Source: a virus (lineage: Duplodnaviria > Heunggongvirae > Uroviricota > Caudoviricetes). From it: a DNA stretch of 36,648 nt. Below the pieces are notes generated by a model. The model made no database searches and had not been told where the DNA came from. It saw nothing but the letters and a program-made list of their open reading frames with translations. Both the position numbers and the translations under genes were made by a program. The DNA is taken from the IMG/VR virus record IMGVR_UViG_2675903330_000001. One strand, 5' to 3'. Shown piece after piece: positions 1,971-36,495 of the stretch (within the stretch, counting starts at the first letter, position 1; each line of letters opens with the position of its first letter).

Positions 1971-2276
1971 TCACTTAATGTCTTTCATTCTACGGATACG
2001 CGCGCTTGCTTCCGGTAGTTCATCCAGTGTTACGTGATAAGCAAGCATACAGACAGGAGTCGGATCAAATCCCTCATGAGTATTGATCAGATGGCTATTC
2101 CCGCCTTTAAACTCATCCTGTCCATCCCATATAGCGTACACGTCATCTTCTGCTACATAGATAATCAATCCAATAGGGGAGTTAGTAAGCTGGAAGATGC
2201 AGCCAGTAGAATCAATGCGATGTTCCCGAACGTCATCAACAGTTTCAAATTCAATCTTAATATCTTTAGTCTTCAT
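1971..2276 (-). CDS. hypothetical protein (101 aa), first prophage gene inside the junction
   Basis: Intact ORF; a weak hairpin plus T-run follows on the minus strand at about 1921-1956. No recognisable motif. Confidence 0.5.
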   Translation of the reverse strand: MKTKDIKIEFETVDDVREHRIDSTGCIFQLTNSPIGLIIYVAEDDVYAIWDGQDEFKGGNSHLINTHEGFDPTPVCMLAYHVTLDELPEASARIRRMKDIK

Positions 2277-2575
2277 GATTTGCCCTCGCGTGAAAAATAT
2301 TTTCGATTATTTATAAAAAAGACTTGACCAAATCAAAAGGTACTGTTCCACGGATGAAATAAAGGGAGTTTTCGGCACCCCGGTTTTTGATGTGCGTGTG
2401 AGATTTCAAAACAGGTGCAGTGCAGCCCACCAGCGCGGTCGCTACGCGACTATTAACACCCGCCAATCCCTTTCCATGCCTCGATCTTTCCCTTCGTTAT
2501 AAAGCGTTTTAGGCGCTCTCCTGAATGCGCAGATCAGATAAATAATTTTACGCAAATTTAATGGAGGATAACCGG

Positions 2576-3127
2576 ATGAAAGAAGAATTAACCCTTACAG
2601 AAATTTCCCGTTTATACGGCTATACAATTAACGCCGCTAAGAAATGGCAAGAACGAGGAATGCCATTTAATACCAATACCCGCCGCGTGCCAGCCAAAGA
2701 AGGAACAGAATGGGTCTTGAAAAATATCATCAACCCGCTTAAAGAAACTACTGTCAAGGAACAAATCGACGTAGAGAAATTACGCCGTGAGAGAGCATTA
2801 GCAGATGCAGCCGAACGAGAGAACCAGGAAGCGATGAATCTCCTGATTCCCGTCGGGTATGTGGAGCAGGAGCTAGCGGAATATTGCGGGAAAGTGAAGC
2901 AGACTATTTTGCAGATCGCCACAATCGATGCCCTAGAAATTCTCGAATCTGCCAATGACCAGAAAACATTGAAGAATAAGCTAAGAGAGATTATCGAGCG
3001 TCGTTTAAATGAAGTAGGGGACTTGTTCGAAAATGCAGATTTGGGAGAAGACGAGGAAGAAGAATTACCATTAATGGATGAACCGGAACAAGAACCAGAA
3101 GAAGACGATGAATTTGATGTGTCTTAA
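2576..3127 (+). CDS. Nu1-like winged-HTH DNA-binding protein, probable terminase small subunit
   Basis: GGAGG 8 nt upstream of the ATG at 2576. N-terminus LTLTEISRLYGYTINAAKKWQERGMP resembles the lambda Nu1 HTH (TIQNWQEQGMP); acidic C-terminal tail. A gpA-type large terminase (9781) normally pairs with a Nu1-type small subunit. Confidence 0.5.
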   Translation: MKEELTLTEISRLYGYTINAAKKWQERGMPFNTNTRRVPAKEGTEWVLKNIINPLKETTVKEQIDVEKLRRERALADAAERENQEAMNLLIPVGYVEQELAEYCGKVKQTILQIATIDALEILESANDQKTLKNKLREIIERRLNEVGDLFENADLGEDEEEELPLMDEPEQEPEEDDEFDVS

Positions 3128-3227
3128 AAATTAGATACTAAATATATACGTGAAGGATGTTGAGCTGGTCAACGTCTACGGGGGAGAACATCCCCCGCTA
3201 ACCTTTTTCTTATTTGAGGATTTACCT

Positions 3228-3329
3228 ATGGTTGAATTTTTGATTTATCTGGCTGTAGGATTAACTATCGTATATTCACTGGCACATATTGGCATTTCTA
3301 CTTTGTGTAACGCTTTCAAGTATCATTAA
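3228..3329 (+). CDS. small hydrophobic peptide (33 aa, one predicted TM helix)
   Basis: ATG with GAGGA 8 nt upstream; MVEFLIYLAVGLTIVYSLAHIGISTLCNAFKYH. Too short for the ORF track. Confidence 0.4.
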   Translation: MVEFLIYLAVGLTIVYSLAHIGISTLCNAFKYH

Positions 3330-3382
3330 TTAAATCGATGAATTGAACTATAGATGATGGTCGTTTTCAAAGAGGATTATCT

Positions 3383-3556
3383 ATGGATCTTTTTGTCTAC
3401 TTTGCTACTCTGCTGTTTTTGACTATCGTCGCTGGCATTAAATTGATTTTTATATCGCTGGTGGTGTTTTTCAAATTTCTAATCGGTACGCCTTACGGCT
3501 GGGTATGCTTCTTTTTGTTTATTCTTTTTAGTTGCTGTAAAAAGGATACTAAATAA
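3383..3556 (+). CDS. small hydrophobic membrane protein (57 aa, two predicted TM helices)
   Basis: ATG with AGAGGA upstream; MDLFVYFATLLFLTIVAGIKLIFISLVVFFKFLIGTPYGWVCFFLFILFSCCKKDTK. Too short for the ORF track. Confidence 0.45.
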   Translation: MDLFVYFATLLFLTIVAGIKLIFISLVVFFKFLIGTPYGWVCFFLFILFSCCKKDTK

Positions 3557-3715
3557 TAGTGTAATCTGCCTTTTCTCCTTATGGTTATTAACAGGGGATC
3601 TTCTTTGAGGATTCCCGATTAAAAGCCATAAAAACACACTTCCAGTACAGTGTTTTCATAGTCAGGATCTATACAACATAAAAACATAACAAGTATAGAT
3701 TGAGTATTAATCCTC

Positions 3716-3740
3716 CCGCCCTTCGGGGCGGTTATTTTTC
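3716..3740 (+). terminator. rho-independent terminator
   Basis: CCGCCC-TTCG-GGGCGG hairpin followed by TTATTTTTC. Confidence 0.6.
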
Positions 3741-3816
3741 TGGCTTTAAAGAATAATGTAGCATTATGTTCATTATAACCTCATCTTTGTTGTGCAAACC
3801 TAACCTAAACTTACTA

Positions 3817-3841
3817 GGGACTCTTCGGAGTCCTTTTTTTT
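3817..3841 (+). terminator. rho-independent terminator
   Basis: GGACTC-TTCG-GAGTCC hairpin followed by T8; the T-run overlaps the stop codon of the convergent minus-strand gene 3840-4082. Confidence 0.65.
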
Positions 3842-4082
3842 ATGCAACAATTCGAAGTGTAAGTTTCTTATGTTGTGTAGGTTTAGTTTCATTTCGCCAC
3901 TCAGGGAATACATGATCCATCATAACCGCATTAGTCTCATCAATCAGCTTTAAGGACTTTCTCAACGCCTTATTATCAGCTTTAAGTGTTTTAATCTCTG
4001 ATTCCATCGCTACCATTCTTTCTTTCATTTTGGTAATTTCTAACATCAGATTACCCAGAAATTCTTTGTTTTGATTCATCAT
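3840..4082 (-). CDS. hypothetical coiled-coil protein (80 aa)
   Basis: GAGGGG RBS upstream; heptad-rich sequence (MESEIKTLKADNKALRKSLKLIDE); last gene of a minus-strand operon. Confidence 0.5.
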   Translation of the reverse strand: MMNQNKEFLGNLMLEITKMKERMVAMESEIKTLKADNKALRKSLKLIDETNAVMMDHVFPEWRNETKPTQHKKLTLRIVA

Positions 4083-4097
4083 AGATTCACCCCTCTA

Positions 4098-5117
4098 TTA
4101 AGCTGCGTATGCGTAGGCGCTGTAGTTGGTGTCATAGATAGCGTCATGCAGTGCCATATGTGCTTCGCGGATCTCGTCTTCGTTTACTTCAATCTCTTCT
4201 TGTTCTTCTTCGGTATCTTCCCAAGTGGTTTTGAATTTAGCCATAAAGTTATTGCGCAGTGTTTCAAAGTTGGTAACTGGTGCGGATTCTGCTTCAACCG
4301 GAACCGGAACTACTACCGGATCAGCTTCTTTCTGTTCTACTTCTTCACCGTTACCCCAACGATAGTTAAGGAGTTCTTCCAGTTCTTCATCAATGGATTT
4401 TTCTTCAACTGCTTCAACTTCAACCGCTGCTACTTCGAAAGTGGTTTCCTGTGCTGACAGTTCAGCTTTCAGAGATGCGTTTTCTGCTTTAACTGCTGCC
4501 ATTTCTGCTTCCAGTTCAGCAATGCGTGCGTTCAGTGCTTCAACTTCGGAAGATTCAACCACTGCAACTTCTTCTTTAACTTCTTCAACTACTACCGGAG
4601 CAACTTCTTTCTGTGCTTCTTTTTTGCAGAAGAAGGAGGAAGTAACCTGTAATGCGTGGTTGTAGAAGGAACCGCCTTTAGTGGTGTTAACAGTACCAGA
4701 AACATCTTTTACAGTGGATTCGGTAGCAACAGTACGGAAGCGTTTAGCAACTTCCTGGGTCTCTACGCCGTATTCGTTACGCTTGCTCTTGTGATGCATT
4801 ACAGCACGGAAGCCGGAAGCAGTTTTAACAACAGCGAGATAGTAAGTTTCATCGGCTTTAGCAGCACGAGCGAAGCAATAAACGGATTCACCTTCTACCA
4901 GTGTAGGTTTAACGTGACGTTTGTCGAAACGGTTAGTGATCTGCCATTCAGCACCGTCTTTGATGCCAGCATTCTGACGCATTTCGGTCAGAGTCTTACC
5001 GGATACTACTTCAAAGGATTTGTCTTGTTTGCTTGCTTTACCTTCCATGACGGTAATGTTCAGTTTGCCGTTGGATTTAATAAACAGGTTGAAGGTGATG
5101 CGCTTAGAATTTTTCAT
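4098..5117 (-). CDS. hypothetical protein (339 aa) with N-terminal globular domain and acidic Ala/Glu-rich coiled-coil
   Basis: Longest uninterrupted frame in the region, AGGAG RBS 10 nt upstream. The plus-strand ORFs over the same DNA are fragmented Ser/Thr-rich antisense artefacts. Confidence 0.6.
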   Translation of the reverse strand: MKNSKRITFNLFIKSNGKLNITVMEGKASKQDKSFEVVSGKTLTEMRQNAGIKDGAEWQITNRFDKRHVKPTLVEGESVYCFARAAKADETYYLAVVKTASGFRAVMHHKSKRNEYGVETQEVAKRFRTVATESTVKDVSGTVNTTKGGSFYNHALQVTSSFFCKKEAQKEVAPVVVEEVKEEVAVVESSEVEALNARIAELEAEMAAVKAENASLKAELSAQETTFEVAAVEVEAVEEKSIDEELEELLNYRWGNGEEVEQKEADPVVVPVPVEAESAPVTNFETLRNNFMAKFKTTWEDTEEEQEEIEVNEDEIREAHMALHDAIYDTNYSAYAYAA

Positions 5118-5162
5118 TTATAAATACTCCTGAATGCTGTGTTAGTTTTAATTGTTCATTTC

Positions 5163-5199
5163 AAGCCTCCTTTGCTGCAACAAGGGAGGCTTTTTATTT
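5163..5199 (+). terminator. hairpin plus T-run (plus-strand terminator-like element)
   Basis: AGCCTCC ... GGAGGCT stem followed by TTTTATTTTT, lying between two minus-strand genes. Confidence 0.35.
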
Positions 5200-5233
5200 T
5201 TAAAGCCATCATATAATTCTCAGTGAAAGTGGA

Positions 5234-5413
5234 TTAACAAACTTGAACGTTAATCTTTATCTGAATTTCGTATTTCTTCATTAGCTTATAGAATCCGCTT
5301 CTATCAATTCCTTCCTTCTTAAAGAAATTCTCGCCGCCTCGTTCAGTATCGCCATAAAAGCGTTTAGCAATATCAACAATCATTTCACGAGTAAACTTAA
5401 CAGGTCTAGCCAT
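5234..5413 (-). CDS. small HTH DNA-binding protein (59 aa), candidate transcriptional regulator
   Basis: ATG at 5413 with GAGGA RBS (the track start at 5428 is a TTG). C-terminal GIDRSGFYKLMKKYEI looks like a helix-turn-helix. First gene of a minus-strand operon diverging from the large intergenic region. Confidence 0.45.
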   Translation of the reverse strand: MARPVKFTREMIVDIAKRFYGDTERGGENFFKKEGIDRSGFYKLMKKYEIQIKINVQVC

Positions 5414-5981
5414 AAGTAGATTCCTCAAATGTGGATTAATAAGGACAATAAAAAGAGCTTTTCGCCCTCGATACTTCTATTTATAAAAGTCATTTCAGAA
5501 AACCCTGCAAAACCACTGTATATCTGATCAGTGGGAGCACGAATTGCTAAAGAGAAGATTAATAATTAATCAATTCGTACATTATTCAATCGAAAAAGCA
5601 CTGTGTGTTTAACCAGTGCTGTGTGTGTTAACAGTGAATCAGGGGATTTTCAGAAGTGAACAATCATTTCATGCATGTATTTATACACGAAAAAATCTTG
5701 TTTATCATCAATATGTGGATTGTTTCGAAAATTTCAACCCCTACCAATGAGAAAAAGTATAAAATAATCCTTGACAGTTGTCAATGCACTTGACCTAAGC
5801 GAGAAATGACTATCAAAATTTTTGTGTGAAAATGGCGGATAACGATTATCAACCTTTATAACCTATTATAGCACGGCGACCTTTTGATAATTCTTTTTAA
5901 ATCATGCATTTACAGCGATTTTTGGTGATTTTCCGGTTAAATAATATACAAGAATTTTCTATCAAAATTTTTGATGAAAAA

Positions 5982-6122
5982 CCTACACTACAAACCTACG
6001 CTTTAAAGGTATTGGCCTACACTACACTAGTCAGTAAACCTACACTATAACACCCTCAAACCTACACTATGAAACCCTCAAACCTACACTATGAAACCTA
6101 CACACCTACACTAACCCTACAC
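5982..6122. repeat. iteron-like array: at least 9 copies of CCTACAC within about 21-bp tandem units (AAACCTACACTATGAAACCCTC)
   Basis: Direct count of CCTACAC/CCTACGC at 5982, 5995, 6016, 6039, 6061, 6083, 6097, 6105 and 6116. Confidence 0.8.
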
Positions 6123-6700
6123 TTCAATCTCATAAGTGTATGATCTTGAAAGACATTTCACCCCACAGACCATAGAATATAAAATTCGAACTAACGTTCT
6201 CCTTTTTGCTCGTTTTCTCTCACTACGTTCAAGAAAGATCTCGCAAAAAGAATACGGCGTAGCCGTGCGCGAAGCGCCCATCAACACCTTCTAAGACCTG
6301 CAAGCAGGATTCGAAAGGGATTGGATAGTTCGCTTCGCTCACGTTCACGCCTACGGCGTTCACTCGCTTTTGAAAGGATTTTCTTAGAAAGGGATTTAAT
6401 ACTAGTTACTAACTGATTCTAGTAAACGAACGAAGTGAGTAACAATCACTTTCTAGAAAGGTATTGGTATCCCTTCGGGATTGCAACCTTCGGTTGCTAA
6501 ATTGCTTCCTGATTATAATTTCTCCAAAAGAAAGATTCTTATATTCTAAAGATACTTCTTCGTTTTGATGATGATTTAATCAAATATATGAAGGAGGGCT
6601 TTAGCCCGACTGAATCCAATCACTTCCAAATAGATAAAAAATTCTCGTTATAAATAATAGTGAACTTACTTGATTCACTTTCTTTTAGAGGATTTCCACT

Positions 6701-7150
6701 ATGATCAATACTAAAACTCCTTTCGTACTTCTGGGTCTGGACTCTGAAAACTATGGCAACTTCCATATGCTAGAAGTTTTCGCTAATCGTGGTTATAACA
6801 TCATTCGTCATTCCGAAGACTCCAACTACTCAACTGCTTTCTACGCTTTAAAACGAAATGGTCGTCCTACTGTGATCATCGACTGTTTTACTGATGAGGG
6901 TCGTCTTCAATACAACGATATTCCAGCAATTATTGTTCGTGATGATCTGCCGTTTCAAGTCCGTTCCGGTGACATTGACCTGGGTAGCTTCTTGACTCTT
7001 CGTGAACTGGATGAAGCAATGTTTAATTACGGTAAAGAAACCGCTCAGGAAGCCCCAGAACAAGATGAGGAAGACGAAGACTACGCACCAATCGCTTTCT
7101 CTTCTCACGGTGGCTTCTACGGTTACGATGAAGGCTTAGATATGCTGTAA
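6701..7150 (+). CDS. hypothetical protein (149 aa) with acidic C-terminal tail
   Basis: AGAGGA RBS; codon usage strongly biased to E. coli optimal codons; C-terminus EAPEQDEEDEDYAPIAF ... FYGYDEGLDML. Confidence 0.55.
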   Translation: MINTKTPFVLLGLDSENYGNFHMLEVFANRGYNIIRHSEDSNYSTAFYALKRNGRPTVIIDCFTDEGRLQYNDIPAIIVRDDLPFQVRSGDIDLGSFLTLRELDEAMFNYGKETAQEAPEQDEEDEDYAPIAFSSHGGFYGYDEGLDML

Positions 7151-8562: not shown

Positions 8563-8573
8563 GTATCTGATGC

Positions 8574-8790
8574 ATCCAGATTTGGATTTATCGGAAGAAT
8601 CAATAGGTTAGAGATGAGCGCAGTTTTGCGCCGATTGATTCAAGTTTGAATTTCTCGAAAGAATCAACCACTTAGATAGATACGCTGAACTTTAAGCACA
8701 TCTCCTCAGTTTTGAGGGCATCTATAGATCAGTCCAAATCTGGACTCATCGGAAGAATCAATGACTTAGAGATGTGCTCAGTTTTGAGCG
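8574..8790. repeat. three tandem 50-70 bp direct repeats (core TCGGAAGAATCAAT ... TTAGAGATG ... CAGTTTTG), outer copies prefixed by inverted CCAGATTTGG / CCAAATCTGG
   Basis: Copies at about 8574-8640, 8648-8720 (degenerate) and 8725-8790, lying between convergent terminators. Confidence 0.7.
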
Positions 8791-8794
8791 GATA

Positions 8795-8824
8795 TAAAAA
8801 AGGCCAACCCCGAAGGATTGGCCT
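8795..8824 (-). terminator. rho-independent terminator for the minus-strand operon
   Basis: AGGCCAA ... TTGGCCT hairpin preceded on the plus strand by A6, giving a T-run on the minus strand after the 8831 stop. Confidence 0.6.
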
Positions 8825-9780: not shown

Positions 9781-11685
9781 ATGAAACTAATTTCTAATAA
9801 GGCCAAATTAAAAAAGATTCTTAAAAATGCAGCCAAATATATTACGCCACCGCCTAAACTCCTTCCATCGGAATGGTGCGAATCTAATATGGTGCTGGTA
9901 GATGGTCCTCAAGCTGGGGATAAAGTTAAATTGCTGTCATTCCAGAAAGGTATGATTGATGCTCCTTTCCTTGAGAACAAGAAAAAGTATGTTCTGATGA
10001 CCAGTGCGCAGATCGGAAAGACTACCATCCTGAACGGTATCCTGTTTAACCAGATGGCTAACGATCCATGCAATATGATTATCGGACAATCAACCGCTAA
10101 AGAAATGTCTCAATATCTCGCTGGTAAGATCCGACCGTCTATCGAAGCATGTGATGCATTAAAAGACGTGGTTACAGACAAGAATGATCGCAATTCTGTT
10201 AATAACAACAATCAGCTCCAGCTCAAATCAAACCACTTCCTTTATATGGTATCGCTTACTAGTCCATCAACCCTGCGCGGTAAGACTGCAAAGGTCGGAC
10301 TACTAGACGAAATCGATGCTGCTACAGCCTCAGAAGAAGGTGATCCGGTGGCACTGGCTGCTAACCGTTTAACTACCTTTGGCGATGAAGGCCGATTAGT
10401 CGTATCCAGTACCCCGACCAGTAAGCTGGGAAGCATTAACCAGCAATGGTTATCAAGTGATATGCGTATGTTTTTTGTTCCGTGTCCTCATTGCGGGGAA
10501 CACCAGGTGATCGAGTGGGAAAACGTTCAATTTGAATGGCGTAACATCGATGGTAAGAACTTACCCGATCCTGATACCGCTCGTTATATTTGCCCCCACT
10601 GTAAGAACGCATGGACAGAAGGGGAACGAATCAGGGCAGTAGCACAAGGCGAGTGGAGAGCAACCCGTGAAAGTGAAGTAGCCGGATTCTGGATTAGCCG
10701 TCTGTATTCACCTTTCAGCACGATCCGCGCTTGTGTGGTTGATTTTAGTCATGCGTGGCAATCCTTTGATTTACAATCATTTTATAACACCGTGTTAGGC
10801 AAAGTATACGACGATCAGGACACGGCAGTAGAAGCAAATGAACTGGAACAACTCAAAACAGATGTTTCTATCGAGAATATCCCTGATGACGTGATTTTCT
10901 TGTGTGCGGGTACTGACCAGCAATTAGATCGCGCAGAAACTACAATCATGGGCGTGGCAAAGGATAAGATTTATATTCTGGATCATCGCAGCTTTTACGA
11001 TCATAACTGTGAACGATATGAATCCCCTGTATGGGATAGATTAATCAACTTCCATAAAACCAAATTTACTACTGTATCTGGTGATCGTGTTCCTATGCTC
11101 GCCAGCTTCCTTGATACATCGAACGGTCGATTCACTCAAGCTGGATACCGTATTTGCGGCAAGTGGAAGAACTTACACGCTATCAAAGGTAGTTCTGCTG
11201 GTAACGCTCCGATCATTCCGGTTAAACCTACCCGCACAGGTGGTCATGAATTGCTTATGTTGGGTGTTAATGTGGGTAAAACTGCATTTCGTGAAATGTT
11301 GGCTAGGAACCTGAAAGATAATCCTCATATTGGCTTAGAAATATCAGACACCGTTCCTGATGATTATCTCGATCAGCTTTTAAGTGAATCTGTCAAGCGT
11401 ACTACTACTGGCGTGAGATGGGTAAAGAACCCAGGCGTTAGGAACGAGGCGCTCGACTGCGCCGTGTATGCTACAGCGGCTTCTCGCTACGTCCTTTCAA
11501 AAATGTCATGGGATAAACTCATTGCAATGAAAGACAGCTTAAACAGCGTTAAAGAAGAACCCGTAAAAGCTCCTGAATCGCAATCTGACGAGCAAATCGA
11601 AGAAACTAAGCCAATCACACGACCGCAACGTCAAAACATCGCCAGACGCCCAAATAGAGGCCGTAGCTGGGTAACATCGTTCTAA
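9781..11685 (+). CDS. terminase large subunit, lambda gpA-like
   Basis: GAGGG RBS; Walker A-like [10 protein letters not shown]; paired Cys motifs CPHCGEHQ ... CPHCKNAW; 634 aa; lies upstream of the portal gene. Confidence 0.8.
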
Positions 11686-31442: not shown

Positions 31443-31721
31443 ATGACTGAAATTATATATGGCGGTATCGGTGTTATCGCCTTAATTTGCGGTGGATTAT
31501 GGAGACTTCACCGAAATCAATTAGCAACTGAAAATAGATTGTCGAAATTGGAATCCAGCGACGCATTGTTAAACCAGAAGTTTGAGACGATGCAGAATAA
31601 CCATACTCAGATTGCTGAACGTGTTTACCAAATGGAACAAACACTACACGGTATAGAGAAGAAAGTGGTTGCGATGGACGCTAAGTTTGACCAAGTTCTC
31701 GACATACTCAAACAAAAATAA
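31443..31721 (+). CDS. membrane-anchored coiled-coil protein (XhlA-like or i-spanin-like lysis protein)
   Basis: N-terminal TM helix (IIYGGIGVIALICGGLW) followed by coiled-coil; begins the lysis region. Confidence 0.4.
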   Translation: MTEIIYGGIGVIALICGGLWRLHRNQLATENRLSKLESSDALLNQKFETMQNNHTQIAERVYQMEQTLHGIEKKVVAMDAKFDQVLDILKQK

Positions 31722-31740: not shown

Positions 31741-31911
31741 ATGAAGAATAAACTTAAGAAATATTTTGGTTATCTCTTGATTGTCGCCCTCACTTATAAC
31801 GTAGCAATTAGACCTCTGCTTACGTCCTTTGGGCTTGAACTCCCGGCTATGACCGTGGATGAACAATTGCTAAGGACACTGGCGGGGGTCTTTTCGTTAT
31901 TAGGGGGCTAA
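31741..31911 (+). CDS. putative holin (56 aa small membrane protein)
   Basis: AAAGGGG RBS; a hydrophobic helix plus a second amphipathic segment; lies in the lysis cassette. Confidence 0.45.
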   Translation: MKNKLKKYFGYLLIVALTYNVAIRPLLTSFGLELPAMTVDEQLLRTLAGVFSLLGG

Positions 31912-32991: not shown

Positions 32992-33345
32992 ATGTTAAGT
33001 AAGCATTTTTCTCGCAAGGAATTTAAATGTAAATGCGGAAAATGTGATTATGATACAATCGACGCTGAATTACTGGTGATTCTTGAGGATGTACGAGAGC
33101 ACTTCGGTAAACCAGTGATTATTAACAGTGGCAACCGTTGCCCGACTCATAACAAGAATGTAGGCGGGGCAGCCAATAGCTATCACGTTCGAGGCCGCGC
33201 GGCTGACATTGTTATCAAGGGTGTCTCGCCTGATATTGTTCATGCTTATCTTGATGGGAAATATCCTACTCAATACGGCTTAGGAAAATATAAAACCTTT
33301 ACGCATATTGATTCCAGATCAAAAAAATCACGGTGGAATGGATAA
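32992..33345 (+). CDS. peptidase M15-family cell-wall hydrolase (putative endolysin)
   Basis: Zn-binding motifs of the M15 fold: NSYHVRGRAADI and the downstream HID; 117 aa; terminator directly after. Confidence 0.65.
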   Translation: MLSKHFSRKEFKCKCGKCDYDTIDAELLVILEDVREHFGKPVIINSGNRCPTHNKNVGGAANSYHVRGRAADIVIKGVSPDIVHAYLDGKYPTQYGLGKYKTFTHIDSRSKKSRWNG

Positions 33346-34827: not shown

Positions 34828-36495
34828 TTAAATTCCAAATTCCTGTAATGGACCTGGTATTTCCTCTTCTGGTTTCCAGTCTTTATCTGTCAGCATGTCT
34901 AAACATGGATGCAGAACAAGCCCGTTACTCTCCAGAATCTGCCTATCATTGATAGTTTTCAAATCGACAAAGATTTGTCCTTTCCTCGTTCCTCTTGAAT
35001 TTTCTATTACAACTCTCTGGGTCTTTCCATCGATGTATTCCAGCACAAACAAGTTTTTATTTCTGTCAATCCTGCTACACCCGATCCGCTTTAGAGCTTG
35101 CTTAATCTTAAACCGGACCTTTAGTCGTTCCTCGTTATAAACATCTTCTAAATCAAATTCTGCGAGCTTCTCCCAGCCTTGAGAGTCCACAGAATACATT
35201 TCCTCTTCTGCCATCTTGATCTGATTGTAGAGTGTTTCACGCTCGCTATTGAGGGTAGTAATCTGATCGGCTAGCTCCTTCGTTGCTCCTGTCATAGCAG
35301 AAAGGGCAATCAGGTTATCAATCTTGCGTGATATCTCATCAACCTGTACTTTCAACGCCGGAACCGGATTAGCCTTGTCCTCAGCAATCCATATTTTATC
35401 AGCCAGCAATTGCAATACAGCTTTCTCTAATTGATCACCTCGAAAACTCCAGTTTGGATGCTCGCAATCAAGTCTACGTGAACGGGTCGCATCACATGTA
35501 TAACGATACTGGTCAGAACGTTTGTTCGTTCCCTTCACTTTAACCATAGCGCAACCGCAATGATCACATTTCAATAGGCCAATACCACTAAGCAGGGGGA
35601 TCGGTTTAACTTCTTCCTTGTCTCCAAAGTTCCATGCTCTAGCACCAATATTTTTCTTAAGGTGATAGAACGTAGCATCATCAATAACACGAGGGTAATA
35701 ATCCTTTAACTCATAGTTAACACCATCTACAGAGACTTCCTTGATACCAATCAAAGCGCGGGTATGGAACAACCTTTCAACCATTGCCCGTGACCATTTT
35801 GAATGCTTCTTATTACTAACCGCTGGTGGCGGTGTATATGTCTCGTTAAGGTGATCCAGTATTTCGGCGGTTGAACGTCCATTCTTCCGTAATTCCACAA
35901 TCTCCTGAACAACAGGGAAGTATGTAGGATGAGGCAACACATAACCGGAAGTGGTATCCGTCCACCACATATTCTTTCCAACTTCCTCGATTGCCACTGC
36001 CGGATTCTGGGGATTTTCTTGATGGGCTTTAATCTTAATCAGTGCGCTTGAGTTAGTACGATTGCGCTTAGTCTGGCTTTCCTCATTACCACGGATGAAT
36101 AAAAGGATGGAGAACATCAGGTCCATCGGGTTAGCGGTAACAGTATCCAGCGAGTAGATCTTGTTATCCATGCCAGTAACAATGGTTATCCCCCTACGGA
36201 TGATTGAAAGGAATAACTCCTGCGCACTGACAATATCGGCACGGGATAAGCGGTCCAAGTTTTCAATGAATAGCCAGCTACCAACAGGAACGGATCTACC
36301 AATTGCATCAAGGAAACGAGATAGCGCCCCTGTTTTGGAGTTAGCACCCTTAAACGCAGATACACCCAGATCCTGATAATCATTTACCAGTTCAAGGTCA
36401 TACTTTGCCGCAACCTCTCTCGCCATCCTGATTTGTCGTTCATAACTCGAACCATCATTCTGACGCATAGACGAGAAGCGAATATACGAATACAG
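34828..36495 (-). CDS. large serine recombinase (prophage integrase), 5' end interrupted by IS1
   Basis: Resolvase-type catalytic region, recombinase domain, zinc ribbon (CDHCGC ... CDATRSRRLDCEH) and coiled-coil. The catalytic Y-x-R-x-S motif (LYSYIRFSS) lies upstream of the first ATG (36468) and runs directly into the IS1 terminus at 36496 with no start codon in between. Confidence 0.8.
   Translation of the reverse strand: MYSYIRFSSMRQNDGSSYERQIRMAREVAAKYDLELVNDYQDLGVSAFKGANSKTGALSRFLDAIGRSVPVGSWLFIENLDRLSRADIVSAQELFLSIIRRGITIVTGMDNKIYSLDTVTANPMDLMFSILLFIRGNEESQTKRNRTNSSALIKIKAHQENPQNPAVAIEEVGKNMWWTDTTSGYVLPHPTYFPVVQEIVELRKNGRSTAEILDHLNETYTPPPAVSNKKHSKWSRAMVERLFHTRALIGIKEVSVDGVNYELKDYYPRVIDDATFYHLKKNIGARAWNFGDKEEVKPIPLLSGIGLLKCDHCGCAMVKVKGTNKRSDQYRYTCDATRSRRLDCEHPNWSFRGDQLEKAVLQLLADKIWIAEDKANPVPALKVQVDEISRKIDNLIALSAMTGATKELADQITTLNSERETLYNQIKMAEEEMYSVDSQGWEKLAEFDLEDVYNEERLKVRFKIKQALKRIGCSRIDRNKNLFVLEYIDGKTQRVVIENSRGTRKGQIFVDLKTINDRQILESNGLVLHPCLDMLTDKDWKPEEEIPGPLQEFGI

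Follow-up and report, generated by a model that had tools for sequence, protein, structure and literature searches.

Two short hydrophobic genes in a two-allele slot of an Escherichia coli prophage and their possible role in phage exclusion

The stretch of DNA analyzed here (36,648 nucleotides (nt), IMG/VR record IMGVR_UViG_2675903330_000001; hereafter the window) carries a prophage of Escherichia coli, in which two short open reading frames (ORFs), ORF1 and ORF2, lie directly downstream of a gene similar to that of the terminase small subunit (terS-like gene, also termed 'Nu1-like'). From a comparison of related prophages, we conclude that ORF1 and ORF2 are very likely genuine membrane-protein genes kept by purifying selection. 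They occupy a fixed slot, bordered by the terS-like gene on one side and by two terminators on the other, and this slot has two alleles, the ORF1-ORF2 pair and a single gene encoding a protein of 94 amino acids (aa). The slot and its borders contain the following features:

2576 to 3127, plus strand: terS-like gene, directly upstream of ORF1 and ORF2
3180 to 3196, plus strand: hairpin GGGGGA-GAACA-TCCCCC, then CTAACCTTTTTCTTATTT, an interrupted T-run, between the terS-like gene and ORF1
3216 to 3220, plus strand: Shine-Dalgarno sequence of ORF1, GAGGA, 7 nt before the ATG
3228 to 3329, plus strand: ORF1, ATG at 3228 and TAA at 3327-3329, 33 aa (MVEFLIYLAVGLTIVYSLAHIGISTLCNAFKYH), a predicted single-helix hydrophobic peptide
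3330 to 3382, plus strand: near-invariant ORF1-ORF2 spacer, which carries the Shine-Dalgarno sequence of ORF2
3372 to 3376, plus strand: Shine-Dalgarno sequence of ORF2, GAGGA, 6 nt before the ATG
3383 to 3556, plus strand: ORF2, ATG at 3383 and TAA at 3554-3556, 57 aa (MDLF...SCCKKDTK), a predicted helical hairpin
3581 to 3629, plus strand: long hairpin in the 3' untranslated region, core stem 3594-3616
3716 to 3741, plus strand: intrinsic terminator 1, stem-loop 3716-3731, CCGCCC-TTCG-GGGCGG and a T-run
3816 to 3843, plus strand: intrinsic terminator 2, stem-loop 3816-3835, AGGGACTC-TTCG-GAGTCCTT and T8

The original prediction, made from the letters of the window, had described two small ORFs with good ribosome-binding sites and almost entirely hydrophobic products, followed by two strong terminators, and these points held up in our analysis. 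The mean Kyte-Doolittle hydropathy was 1.21 for ORF1 and 1.56 for ORF2, with the best 19-residue windows reaching 1.95 and 2.69, respectively. In the AlphaFold2 model, ORF2 forms two helices spanning residues 2-35 and 37-55 with a break at Thr-Pro (mean predicted local distance difference test score (pLDDT) of 80). From the hydropathy and the modeled helices, both peptides are predicted to be membrane proteins that would insert in the cytoplasmic membrane; by the positive-inside rule, ORF1 would have its N-terminus outside and its C-terminus inside, and ORF2 would have both termini inside. The C-termini read KYH in ORF1, KKDTK in ORF2 and KQTK in the protein of the 94-aa allele. A longer version of ORF1 (59 aa, starting from GTG 3150) was considered and rejected, because indels and a flipped hairpin in the 3128-3227 region of the relatives break its frame.

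The plus strand is T-rich in this region (AT skew about -0.25 to -0.29), and hydrophobic ORFs could therefore arise by chance; for this reason we collected relatives, namely 14 loci from complete E. coli genomes, 23 from IMG/VR and 10 further contexts. The classified set (n = 38) comprises the window and the 37 loci; the two-ORF cassette is present in 26 of these sequences, which represent 19 distinct versions. ORF2 is intact in all 26 and ORF1 in 25. Among the 19 distinct copies, the ratio of synonymous to non-synonymous changes was 10:5 in ORF1 (p=4e-4 versus 23% expected) and 15:13 in ORF2 (p=2e-4), and the variable sites fell mostly on third codon positions (4/2/9 in ORF1 and 7/5/15 in ORF2 for positions 1/2/3). 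The other two plus-strand frames showed no synonymous excess. The rough omega was 0.15 for ORF1 and 0.24 for ORF2, next to an omega-like ratio of 0.15 for the terS-like gene in the same genomes, and the amino-acid changes were conservative (A/T, L/V, FF/LI, K/S). The 20-nt leader of ORF1 (3208-3227) was invariant in the 19 distinct copies, as were the ribosome-binding sites. We judge both ORFs to be protein-coding because of the frame-specific synonymous excess, a constraint like that of the terS-like gene, and the intact frames. Antisense genes were rejected since all three minus-strand frames contain stops, and the partial synonymous excess in one antisense frame (13:15 for ORF2) is what shared third codon positions would be expected to produce.

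The lone broken ORF1 (locus L010) has a 1-nt deletion and belongs to a prophage in decay, in which an IS3-family element has inserted downstream of the slot. ORF2 at the same locus carries three private non-synonymous changes, and the broken ORF1 together with the changed ORF2 speaks for a coupling of the two ORFs.

The second allele of the slot was found in 12 of the 38 classified sequences, where one 94-aa gene (e.g. WP_000190125), annotated by PGAP, replaces the stretch equivalent to 3208-3547 of the window. The left homology break lies at ~3207, and homology between the two cassettes returns in the last codons (K-x-T-K-stop) and goes on through the 3' untranslated region. The 94-aa allele is likewise constrained (23:16, p=2e-6, omega ~0.21). 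In a set of 5426 complete E. coli genomes, the locus was found in 63, ~28 with the pair and ~30 with the other allele. Neither the 38 classified sequences nor the 10 further contexts contained an empty slot, or a cassette away from the terS-like gene or outside the prophage context; in each of the 10 contexts, the pair is located downstream of the terS-like gene. The original prediction had named the absence of these ORFs from otherwise conserved relatives as an observation that would speak against it. About half of the relatives do lack the pair, but their slot for a small membrane protein is always filled, with the 94-aa gene instead. What is conserved is thus the slot for a small membrane protein and not this specific pair.

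Mobile elements have entered the locus in some relatives. In E. coli PE15 (locus L049, NZ_CP041628.1), a unit of ISApl1, PAP2 and mcr-1.1 (colistin resistance) is inserted in the 3' end of ORF2, at the equivalent of ~3527. The IS4-like element IS421 is found at or beside the 3180-3196 hairpin (equivalent to ~3180-3200) in loci L033 and L044 and in hits H11, H12 and H21, and this insertion parts the small ORFs from the terS-like gene.

The two alleles resemble each other in their predicted architecture. The model of the 94-aa protein has three helices (residues 2-21, 26-64 and 66-92; pLDDT 70), which equals the one helix of ORF1 plus the two of ORF2, and the orientation given by the positive-inside rule, as inferred from the charges, also matches. 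ORF2 is collinear with residues 36-94 of the 94-aa protein, sharing the patches FV.FA.L..IV.GI and WV.CLI.F..F..K.TK. The shuffle p-value for this similarity varied with the gap penalty and with the variant of ORF2 used (0.001 to 0.18), and hhalign between the alleles gave E=0.1 and 0.38; BLASTP between the alleles returned no match, and the global alignment of the DNA gave z=1. Taken together, ORF1 and ORF2 would make up one functional unit of three helices that is the equivalent of the 94-aa protein. Going one step further, the pair and the 94-aa protein might be split and fused forms of one ancestral three-helix protein with the break in the first cytoplasmic loop, in which case ORF1 and ORF2 would be an obligate heterodimer and the invariant spacer would balance the subunits; judging from the sequences, we regard this as speculative and rather unlikely to hold in full. 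If true, fission and fusion forms of a membrane micro-protein would be segregating as a natural polymorphism in a single prophage lineage.

The peptides probably ride on the terS-like transcript. ORF1 and ORF2 would be the distal part of this transcript, which would read through the weak 3180-3196 hairpin and end at the two terminators. The 3180-3196 hairpin is found in both allele types, where it forms the left border of the cassette that is exchanged, and is reverse-complemented (GGGGGATGTTCTCCCCC) in L004 and L006; it is possibly a leaky terminator or attenuator, or a stabilizer. Further downstream, only 3 of 53 columns vary in the ORF1-ORF2 spacer, compared with a per-site variation of 0.15 for the ORFs and 0.21-0.23 for the flanking non-coding DNA, and this near-invariance runs on into the first ~70 nt of ORF2 (3330-3453; the stretch 3312-3453 is almost invariant). 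A predicted long-range stem between ~3355-3365 and 3421-3431 encloses the start of ORF2. The RNA from 3128 to 3850 folds with z=-5.4 against shuffled sequences, and in an RNAalifold analysis of 15 sequences, two core pairs of the 3594-3616 stem covary, with UA replaced by CG in 6 sequences for one pair and in 3 for the other.

As for the two terminators, their stems (3716-3731 and 3816-3835) are kept by compensatory changes. Terminator 1 shows a compensatory CG to UA change in relatives and a loop that is flipped (TTCG or CGAA), and the stem of terminator 2, which abuts the stop codon of a convergent 80-aa gene (3840-4082, minus strand), has a CG to GC swap in L014 and L020. In total, 2300-4200 contains 5 terminator-like sites, versus 1.4 +/- 1.2 in shuffles. 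On the minus strand, the one weak promoter-like site (3474-3446) is directed across the ORF2 start and has a poor -10 element (AAAAAT), and no terminator-like site was found within 3128-3600; an antisense RNA is therefore not supported.

The three hairpins around the slot also occur in flipped form among relatives (L004, L006, L009, L012, L014 and L020), as GGGGGAGAACATCCCCC versus GGGGGATGTTCTCCCCC, as the loop TTCG versus CGAA, and as the stem GGGACTC versus GGGAGTC. From their sequences, these flips look like quasi-palindrome inversions by template switching, and they indicate that the stems rather than the loop sequences are kept. Between the terminators, the segment 3750-3812 is almost invariant in both allele types, exceeding the coding regions in conservation, and contains the palindrome ATAATGTAGCATTAT and the iteron-like CAAACCTAACCTAAAC. 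This segment might bind a protein or encode a short RNA ending at terminator 2.

We searched for homologs of both alleles. Pfam, PHROGs, PADLOC and NCBIfam gave no match for ORF1, ORF2 or the 94-aa allele, and the toxin families of Pfam and NCBIfam gave none at E up to 0.1-1. A word-index search with ORF2 returned E. coli proteins only, all at ≥95% identity (ORF1 is below the length usable in this search), while phmmer against 1.84 billion representatives returned the query's own cluster and one spurious 1088-aa match. Foldseek of both AlphaFold2 models against BFVD (viral models) gave nothing better than E=0.8, and Rfam over 2300-7000 at E up to 5 gave only noise. By these searches, ORF1 and ORF2 appear to be orphan proteins confined to one E. 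coli prophage lineage. The statement that the two genes are unannotated proved right for one set of databases: RefSeq/PGAP omits both ORFs in 10 of the 10 RefSeq relatives of this allele that were inspected, but GenBank/ENA already list the exact sequences as 'Uncharacterised protein' or 'putative membrane protein'. The exact sequence of ORF1 occurs in 422 contigs and that of ORF2 in at least 1000.

Regarding the function, we favor a reading in which ORF1 and ORF2 are a putative accessory inner-membrane effector pair in phage-phage conflict, that is, exclusion, and give it a probability of roughly 0.35. The peptides would block DNA entry or disturb membrane integrity when competing phages infect. 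There is an established class of small prophage proteins that reside in the inner membrane and exclude other phages, for example HK97 gp15 (PMC3594210). Four properties led us to this reading by analogy: the low guanine-cytosine (GC) content of the slot (33.5%, versus 43% (0.431) in the terS-like gene and 41.8% in the prophage), the private terminators, the allelic replacement, and the adjoining variable cargo slot.

This cargo slot lies between attL and the terS-like gene and holds a 101-aa unknown protein in the window (1971-2276, minus strand). Its contents vary among relatives, with an LprI-family lysozyme-inhibitor-like protein in many of them, a GIY-YIG nuclease in L012 and two unknowns in L005.

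Several results weigh against exclusion. First, the low GC content is partly automatic from hydrophobic coding. Second, the peptides show no similarity to a known exclusion, defence, holin or toxin family in Pfam, PHROGs, PADLOC, NCBIfam, phmmer or BFVD. Third, the pair was never a plain insertion or simply absent, and never outside the prophage context, and hence is no textbook moron. Fourth, the equivalence of the pair and the 94-aa protein is suggestive, resting on helix counts, predicted topology and weak similarity. Fifth, a consensus scan of 2300-4200 found no plus-strand sigma-70-type promoter, although weak or activator-dependent ones could escape it, and no promoter of the slot's own was found by eye in 3100-3227. 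Because no promoter was seen upstream of ORF1 or the terS-like gene, expression from the repressed prophage, which exclusion needs, is unsupported, and co-transcription with the terminase gene would suggest late expression. The original prediction had offered toxin, holin-like and exclusion/abortive-infection roles, none of which drew specific evidence: we found no family match, antisense signal, own promoter or endolysin adjacency.

The foremost alternative is a function in lysis, where either allele would encode a holin, an antiholin or a lysis-timing component that is expressed late with the terS-like gene and permeabilizes the inner membrane, or primes it, for the soluble M15 endolysin. 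We consider it possible but doubtful. The genes that bear on it, together with the other features of the prophage, are as follows:

3840 to 4082, minus strand: convergent gene past the terminators, 80 aa
4098 to 5117, minus strand: second convergent gene past the terminators
9781 to 11685: large terminase of the lambda-GpA type (terL)
31443 to 31721: ORF upstream of the endolysin region, 92 aa, N-terminal helix and coiled coil
31741 to 31911: ORF upstream of the endolysin region, 56 aa, two hydrophobic segments
32992 to 33345: M15-peptidase endolysin (PHROG 894, Pfam Peptidase_M15_3)
34828 to 36468, minus strand: large serine integrase
Further prophage genes: portal protein; fused protease and major head protein; tail genes; tape-measure protein; 1258-aa tail-tip protein

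The endolysin lacks a signal sequence and hence needs a holin, and no recognized holin or spanin family was found anywhere in the prophage. The 94-aa protein, with three helices and an N-out/C-in orientation by the positive-inside rule, has the layout of a class I holin, which is known from lambda S105. The promoter scan is read most simply as co-transcription with a late gene, and holins are highly diverse and often exchanged between phages. On the circular phage map, the slot is only ~5 kb beyond the lysis region, and in phage DCP80, the sole cultured relative found (32% identity in the terS-like protein and 44% in terL), the terS-like homolog directly follows the endolysin and is likewise unlinked from terL. 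However, the slot (3228-3556) stands apart from the endolysin, since the serine integrase, attP and a cargo gene intervene on the circular map, and the small membrane ORFs at 31443-31721 and 31741-31911 are much closer to the endolysin and make more natural candidates for a holin or spanin. Holins typically end in a charged cytoplasmic C-terminal tail, which is shrunk here to KKDTK or KQTK, and there is no dual-start motif, no match to a holin family in PHROGs or Pfam, and no fold match in BFVD.

Somewhat less likely again, ORF1 and ORF2 could be small proteins that regulate another membrane protein of the host or the phage (for instance a transporter, sensor kinase or respiratory complex) and have no part in lysis or in conflicts between phages. 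Most characterized bacterial membrane proteins shorter than 60 aa work as regulators, as do AcrZ, MgtS, MgrB and CydX. In addition, intergenic small ORFs of Enterobacteriaceae have been grouped into ~67,000 conserved clusters, which are mostly hydrophobic and have predicted interaction partners (PMC11188072). The neighborhood, however, suggests no partner, as it consists of the terS-like gene and coiled-coil proteins without membrane segments, and the ORF1/ORF2 family is restricted to one prophage lineage.

It is improbable that the locus is a type I toxin-antitoxin or addiction module, with toxicity in at least one of the peptides through membrane depolarization and an antisense RNA that would cover the invariant spacer and the ORF2 start and thereby restrain the toxin. 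The size and extreme hydrophobicity of the peptides do recall toxins of the Ibs, Ldr, Hok and TisB types, and the structured mRNA region (z=-5.4), the near-invariant 3312-3453 stretch and the weak promoter-like site at 3474-3446 on the minus strand would fit such a module. Yet this site has the poor -10 element AAAAAT and the minus strand has no terminator-like site in 3128-3600; the ribosome-binding sites of both ORFs are strong and have optimal spacing, which most type I toxins under tight repression lack; and the allelic alternative, a 94-aa three-helix protein, exceeds the size of type I toxins. There was also no Rfam or toxin-family match, and the locus tolerates insertion-sequence and transposon insertions. 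Lastly, it is very improbable that ORF1 and ORF2 are non-functional chance frames in a T-rich spacer conserved through an RNA or DNA element: a T-rich plus strand automatically gives hydrophobic codons and conserved hairpins are abundant here, but the substitution pattern largely refutes this, with its frame-specific synonymous excess, third-position variation and constraint equal to that of the neighboring gene, as do the frames kept in 25/26 and 26/26 loci and the other allele of the slot, an annotated protein gene under the same constraint.

The wider setting of the slot is a prophage that spans from ~1.9 kb to the end of the window. The window opens with chromosomal DNA of E. coli, namely tRNA-Ser (168-255), ghrA (450-1427) and a truncated ycdX (1482-1907), and RefSeq relatives carry the same chromosomal gene annotations (tRNA-Ser, ghrA, ycdX). 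The small-ORF slot is near the attL end, and the prophage family combines a serine integrase with siphovirus-like structural genes; its members are integrated in ycdX, hicB or a cytosine permease gene. The terS-like gene matches PHROG 57, terminase small subunit, over its full length (7e-16), whereas the match to Pfam Phage_Nu1 is below threshold (15.2 bits, cut-off 30). Its mechanically called ORF begins at 2561, and the PGAP homologs use the ATG at 2576, which follows GGAGGA. It is the only gene of its kind there and lies 6.6 kb from terL, with convergent and divergent regulatory genes and an iteron region in between. A megablast search against phages gave no match, a scan of genome contigs with the terS-like protein gave no relative, and a literature search for the prophage via its ycdX integration site gave nothing relevant.

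Two repeat regions were noted elsewhere in the window. A 1.3-kb AT-rich stretch with only short ORFs (5430-6700) contains, especially in 5979-6127, at least 8 iteron-like copies of AAACCTACACTA, several of them at 22-nt spacing. The window has 17 matches to AAACCTACACTA with ≤2 mismatches, versus 3.1 +/- 1.7 in shuffles, and three copies in inverted arrangement flank terminator 2 (3796-3807 on the plus strand, and 3855-3866 and 3873-3884 on the minus strand). By its sequence, this array probably serves a single DNA-binding protein, as an origin or as a set of operators. Downstream of a Rha-like gene, 8566-8800 carries three repeat units of ~44 nt with internal palindromes (TCCAGATTTGGA; GCGCAGTTTTGCGC), which could be a packaging or regulatory site.

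With this analysis, a widespread, uncharacterized E. coli prophage family gains two well-supported genes for small membrane proteins and a locus with two alleles. If the pair and the 94-aa allele are exclusion or lysis-timing factors, the locus would be a compact natural experiment on a split versus a fused three-helix protein, and this comparison, if the split/fused relation is true, would be useful for studying the assembly of micro-proteins in membranes. Otherwise, the locus is a further case of the conserved hydrophobic small ORFs that are already known in large numbers from the mobile DNA of enterobacteria. Small prophage membrane proteins are a familiar class, and the mildly interesting twist here is the allelism of two peptides and one protein. 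Conserved hydrophobic small ORFs that have no domain and are missed by annotation are abundant in Enterobacteriaceae (PMC11188072).

Compared with known systems, ORF1 and ORF2 are like HK97 gp15 (YebO-like, moron-encoded superinfection exclusion), T4 Imm and P22 SieA in being small predicted inner-membrane proteins of a prophage or phage (PMC3594210). As with exclusion genes of the HK97 gp15 type, the slot has its own terminator and a GC content below that of its neighbors, and varies between related phages. They differ from gp15, Imm and SieA in that no sequence similarity (Pfam, PHROGs, PADLOC), fold match (BFVD, best E=0.8), own promoter or plain insertion was detected, in that there are two peptides rather than one, and in that exclusion is putative here. 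Among the marks of a moron given by Juhala and Hendrix (per PMC3594210), the slot shows its own terminators and a base composition that differs from the flanks, but it is not an insertion between genes that are adjacent in related phages, as the 38 sequences and 10 contexts include no empty slot.

Holins (lambda S105, phage 21 S68 and two-component systems) share with the two alleles the number of transmembrane helices (1-3), the small size, the orphan-like diversity and a probable late co-expression, whereas class I and II holins differ from them in the endolysin, which is not adjacent here, in the charged C-terminal tail, which is only 4-5 residues long here, in the dual start, which is missing here, and in belonging to families that were not matched here. 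The type I toxins of E. coli (Hok, Ldr, Ibs, ShoB, TisB, ZorO and DinQ) are likewise shorter than 60 aa, hydrophobic and set in a structured mRNA context; ORF1 and ORF2 are unlike them in lacking signals of an antisense RNA gene and in having exposed, strong ribosome-binding sites, a tandem arrangement and a 94-aa allelic partner, and showed no homology to Hok/Gef, Ldr, Ibs, ShoB, TisB, Zor or DinQ in Pfam, NCBIfam or phmmer. Finally, ORF1 and ORF2 are like the 'Entero67K' small ORFs (PMC11188072), which have 15-70 codons, are hydrophobic and under purifying selection, contain no Pfam domain and are skipped by annotation, and they are set apart from these by a defined prophage slot with an alternative allele of fused length.

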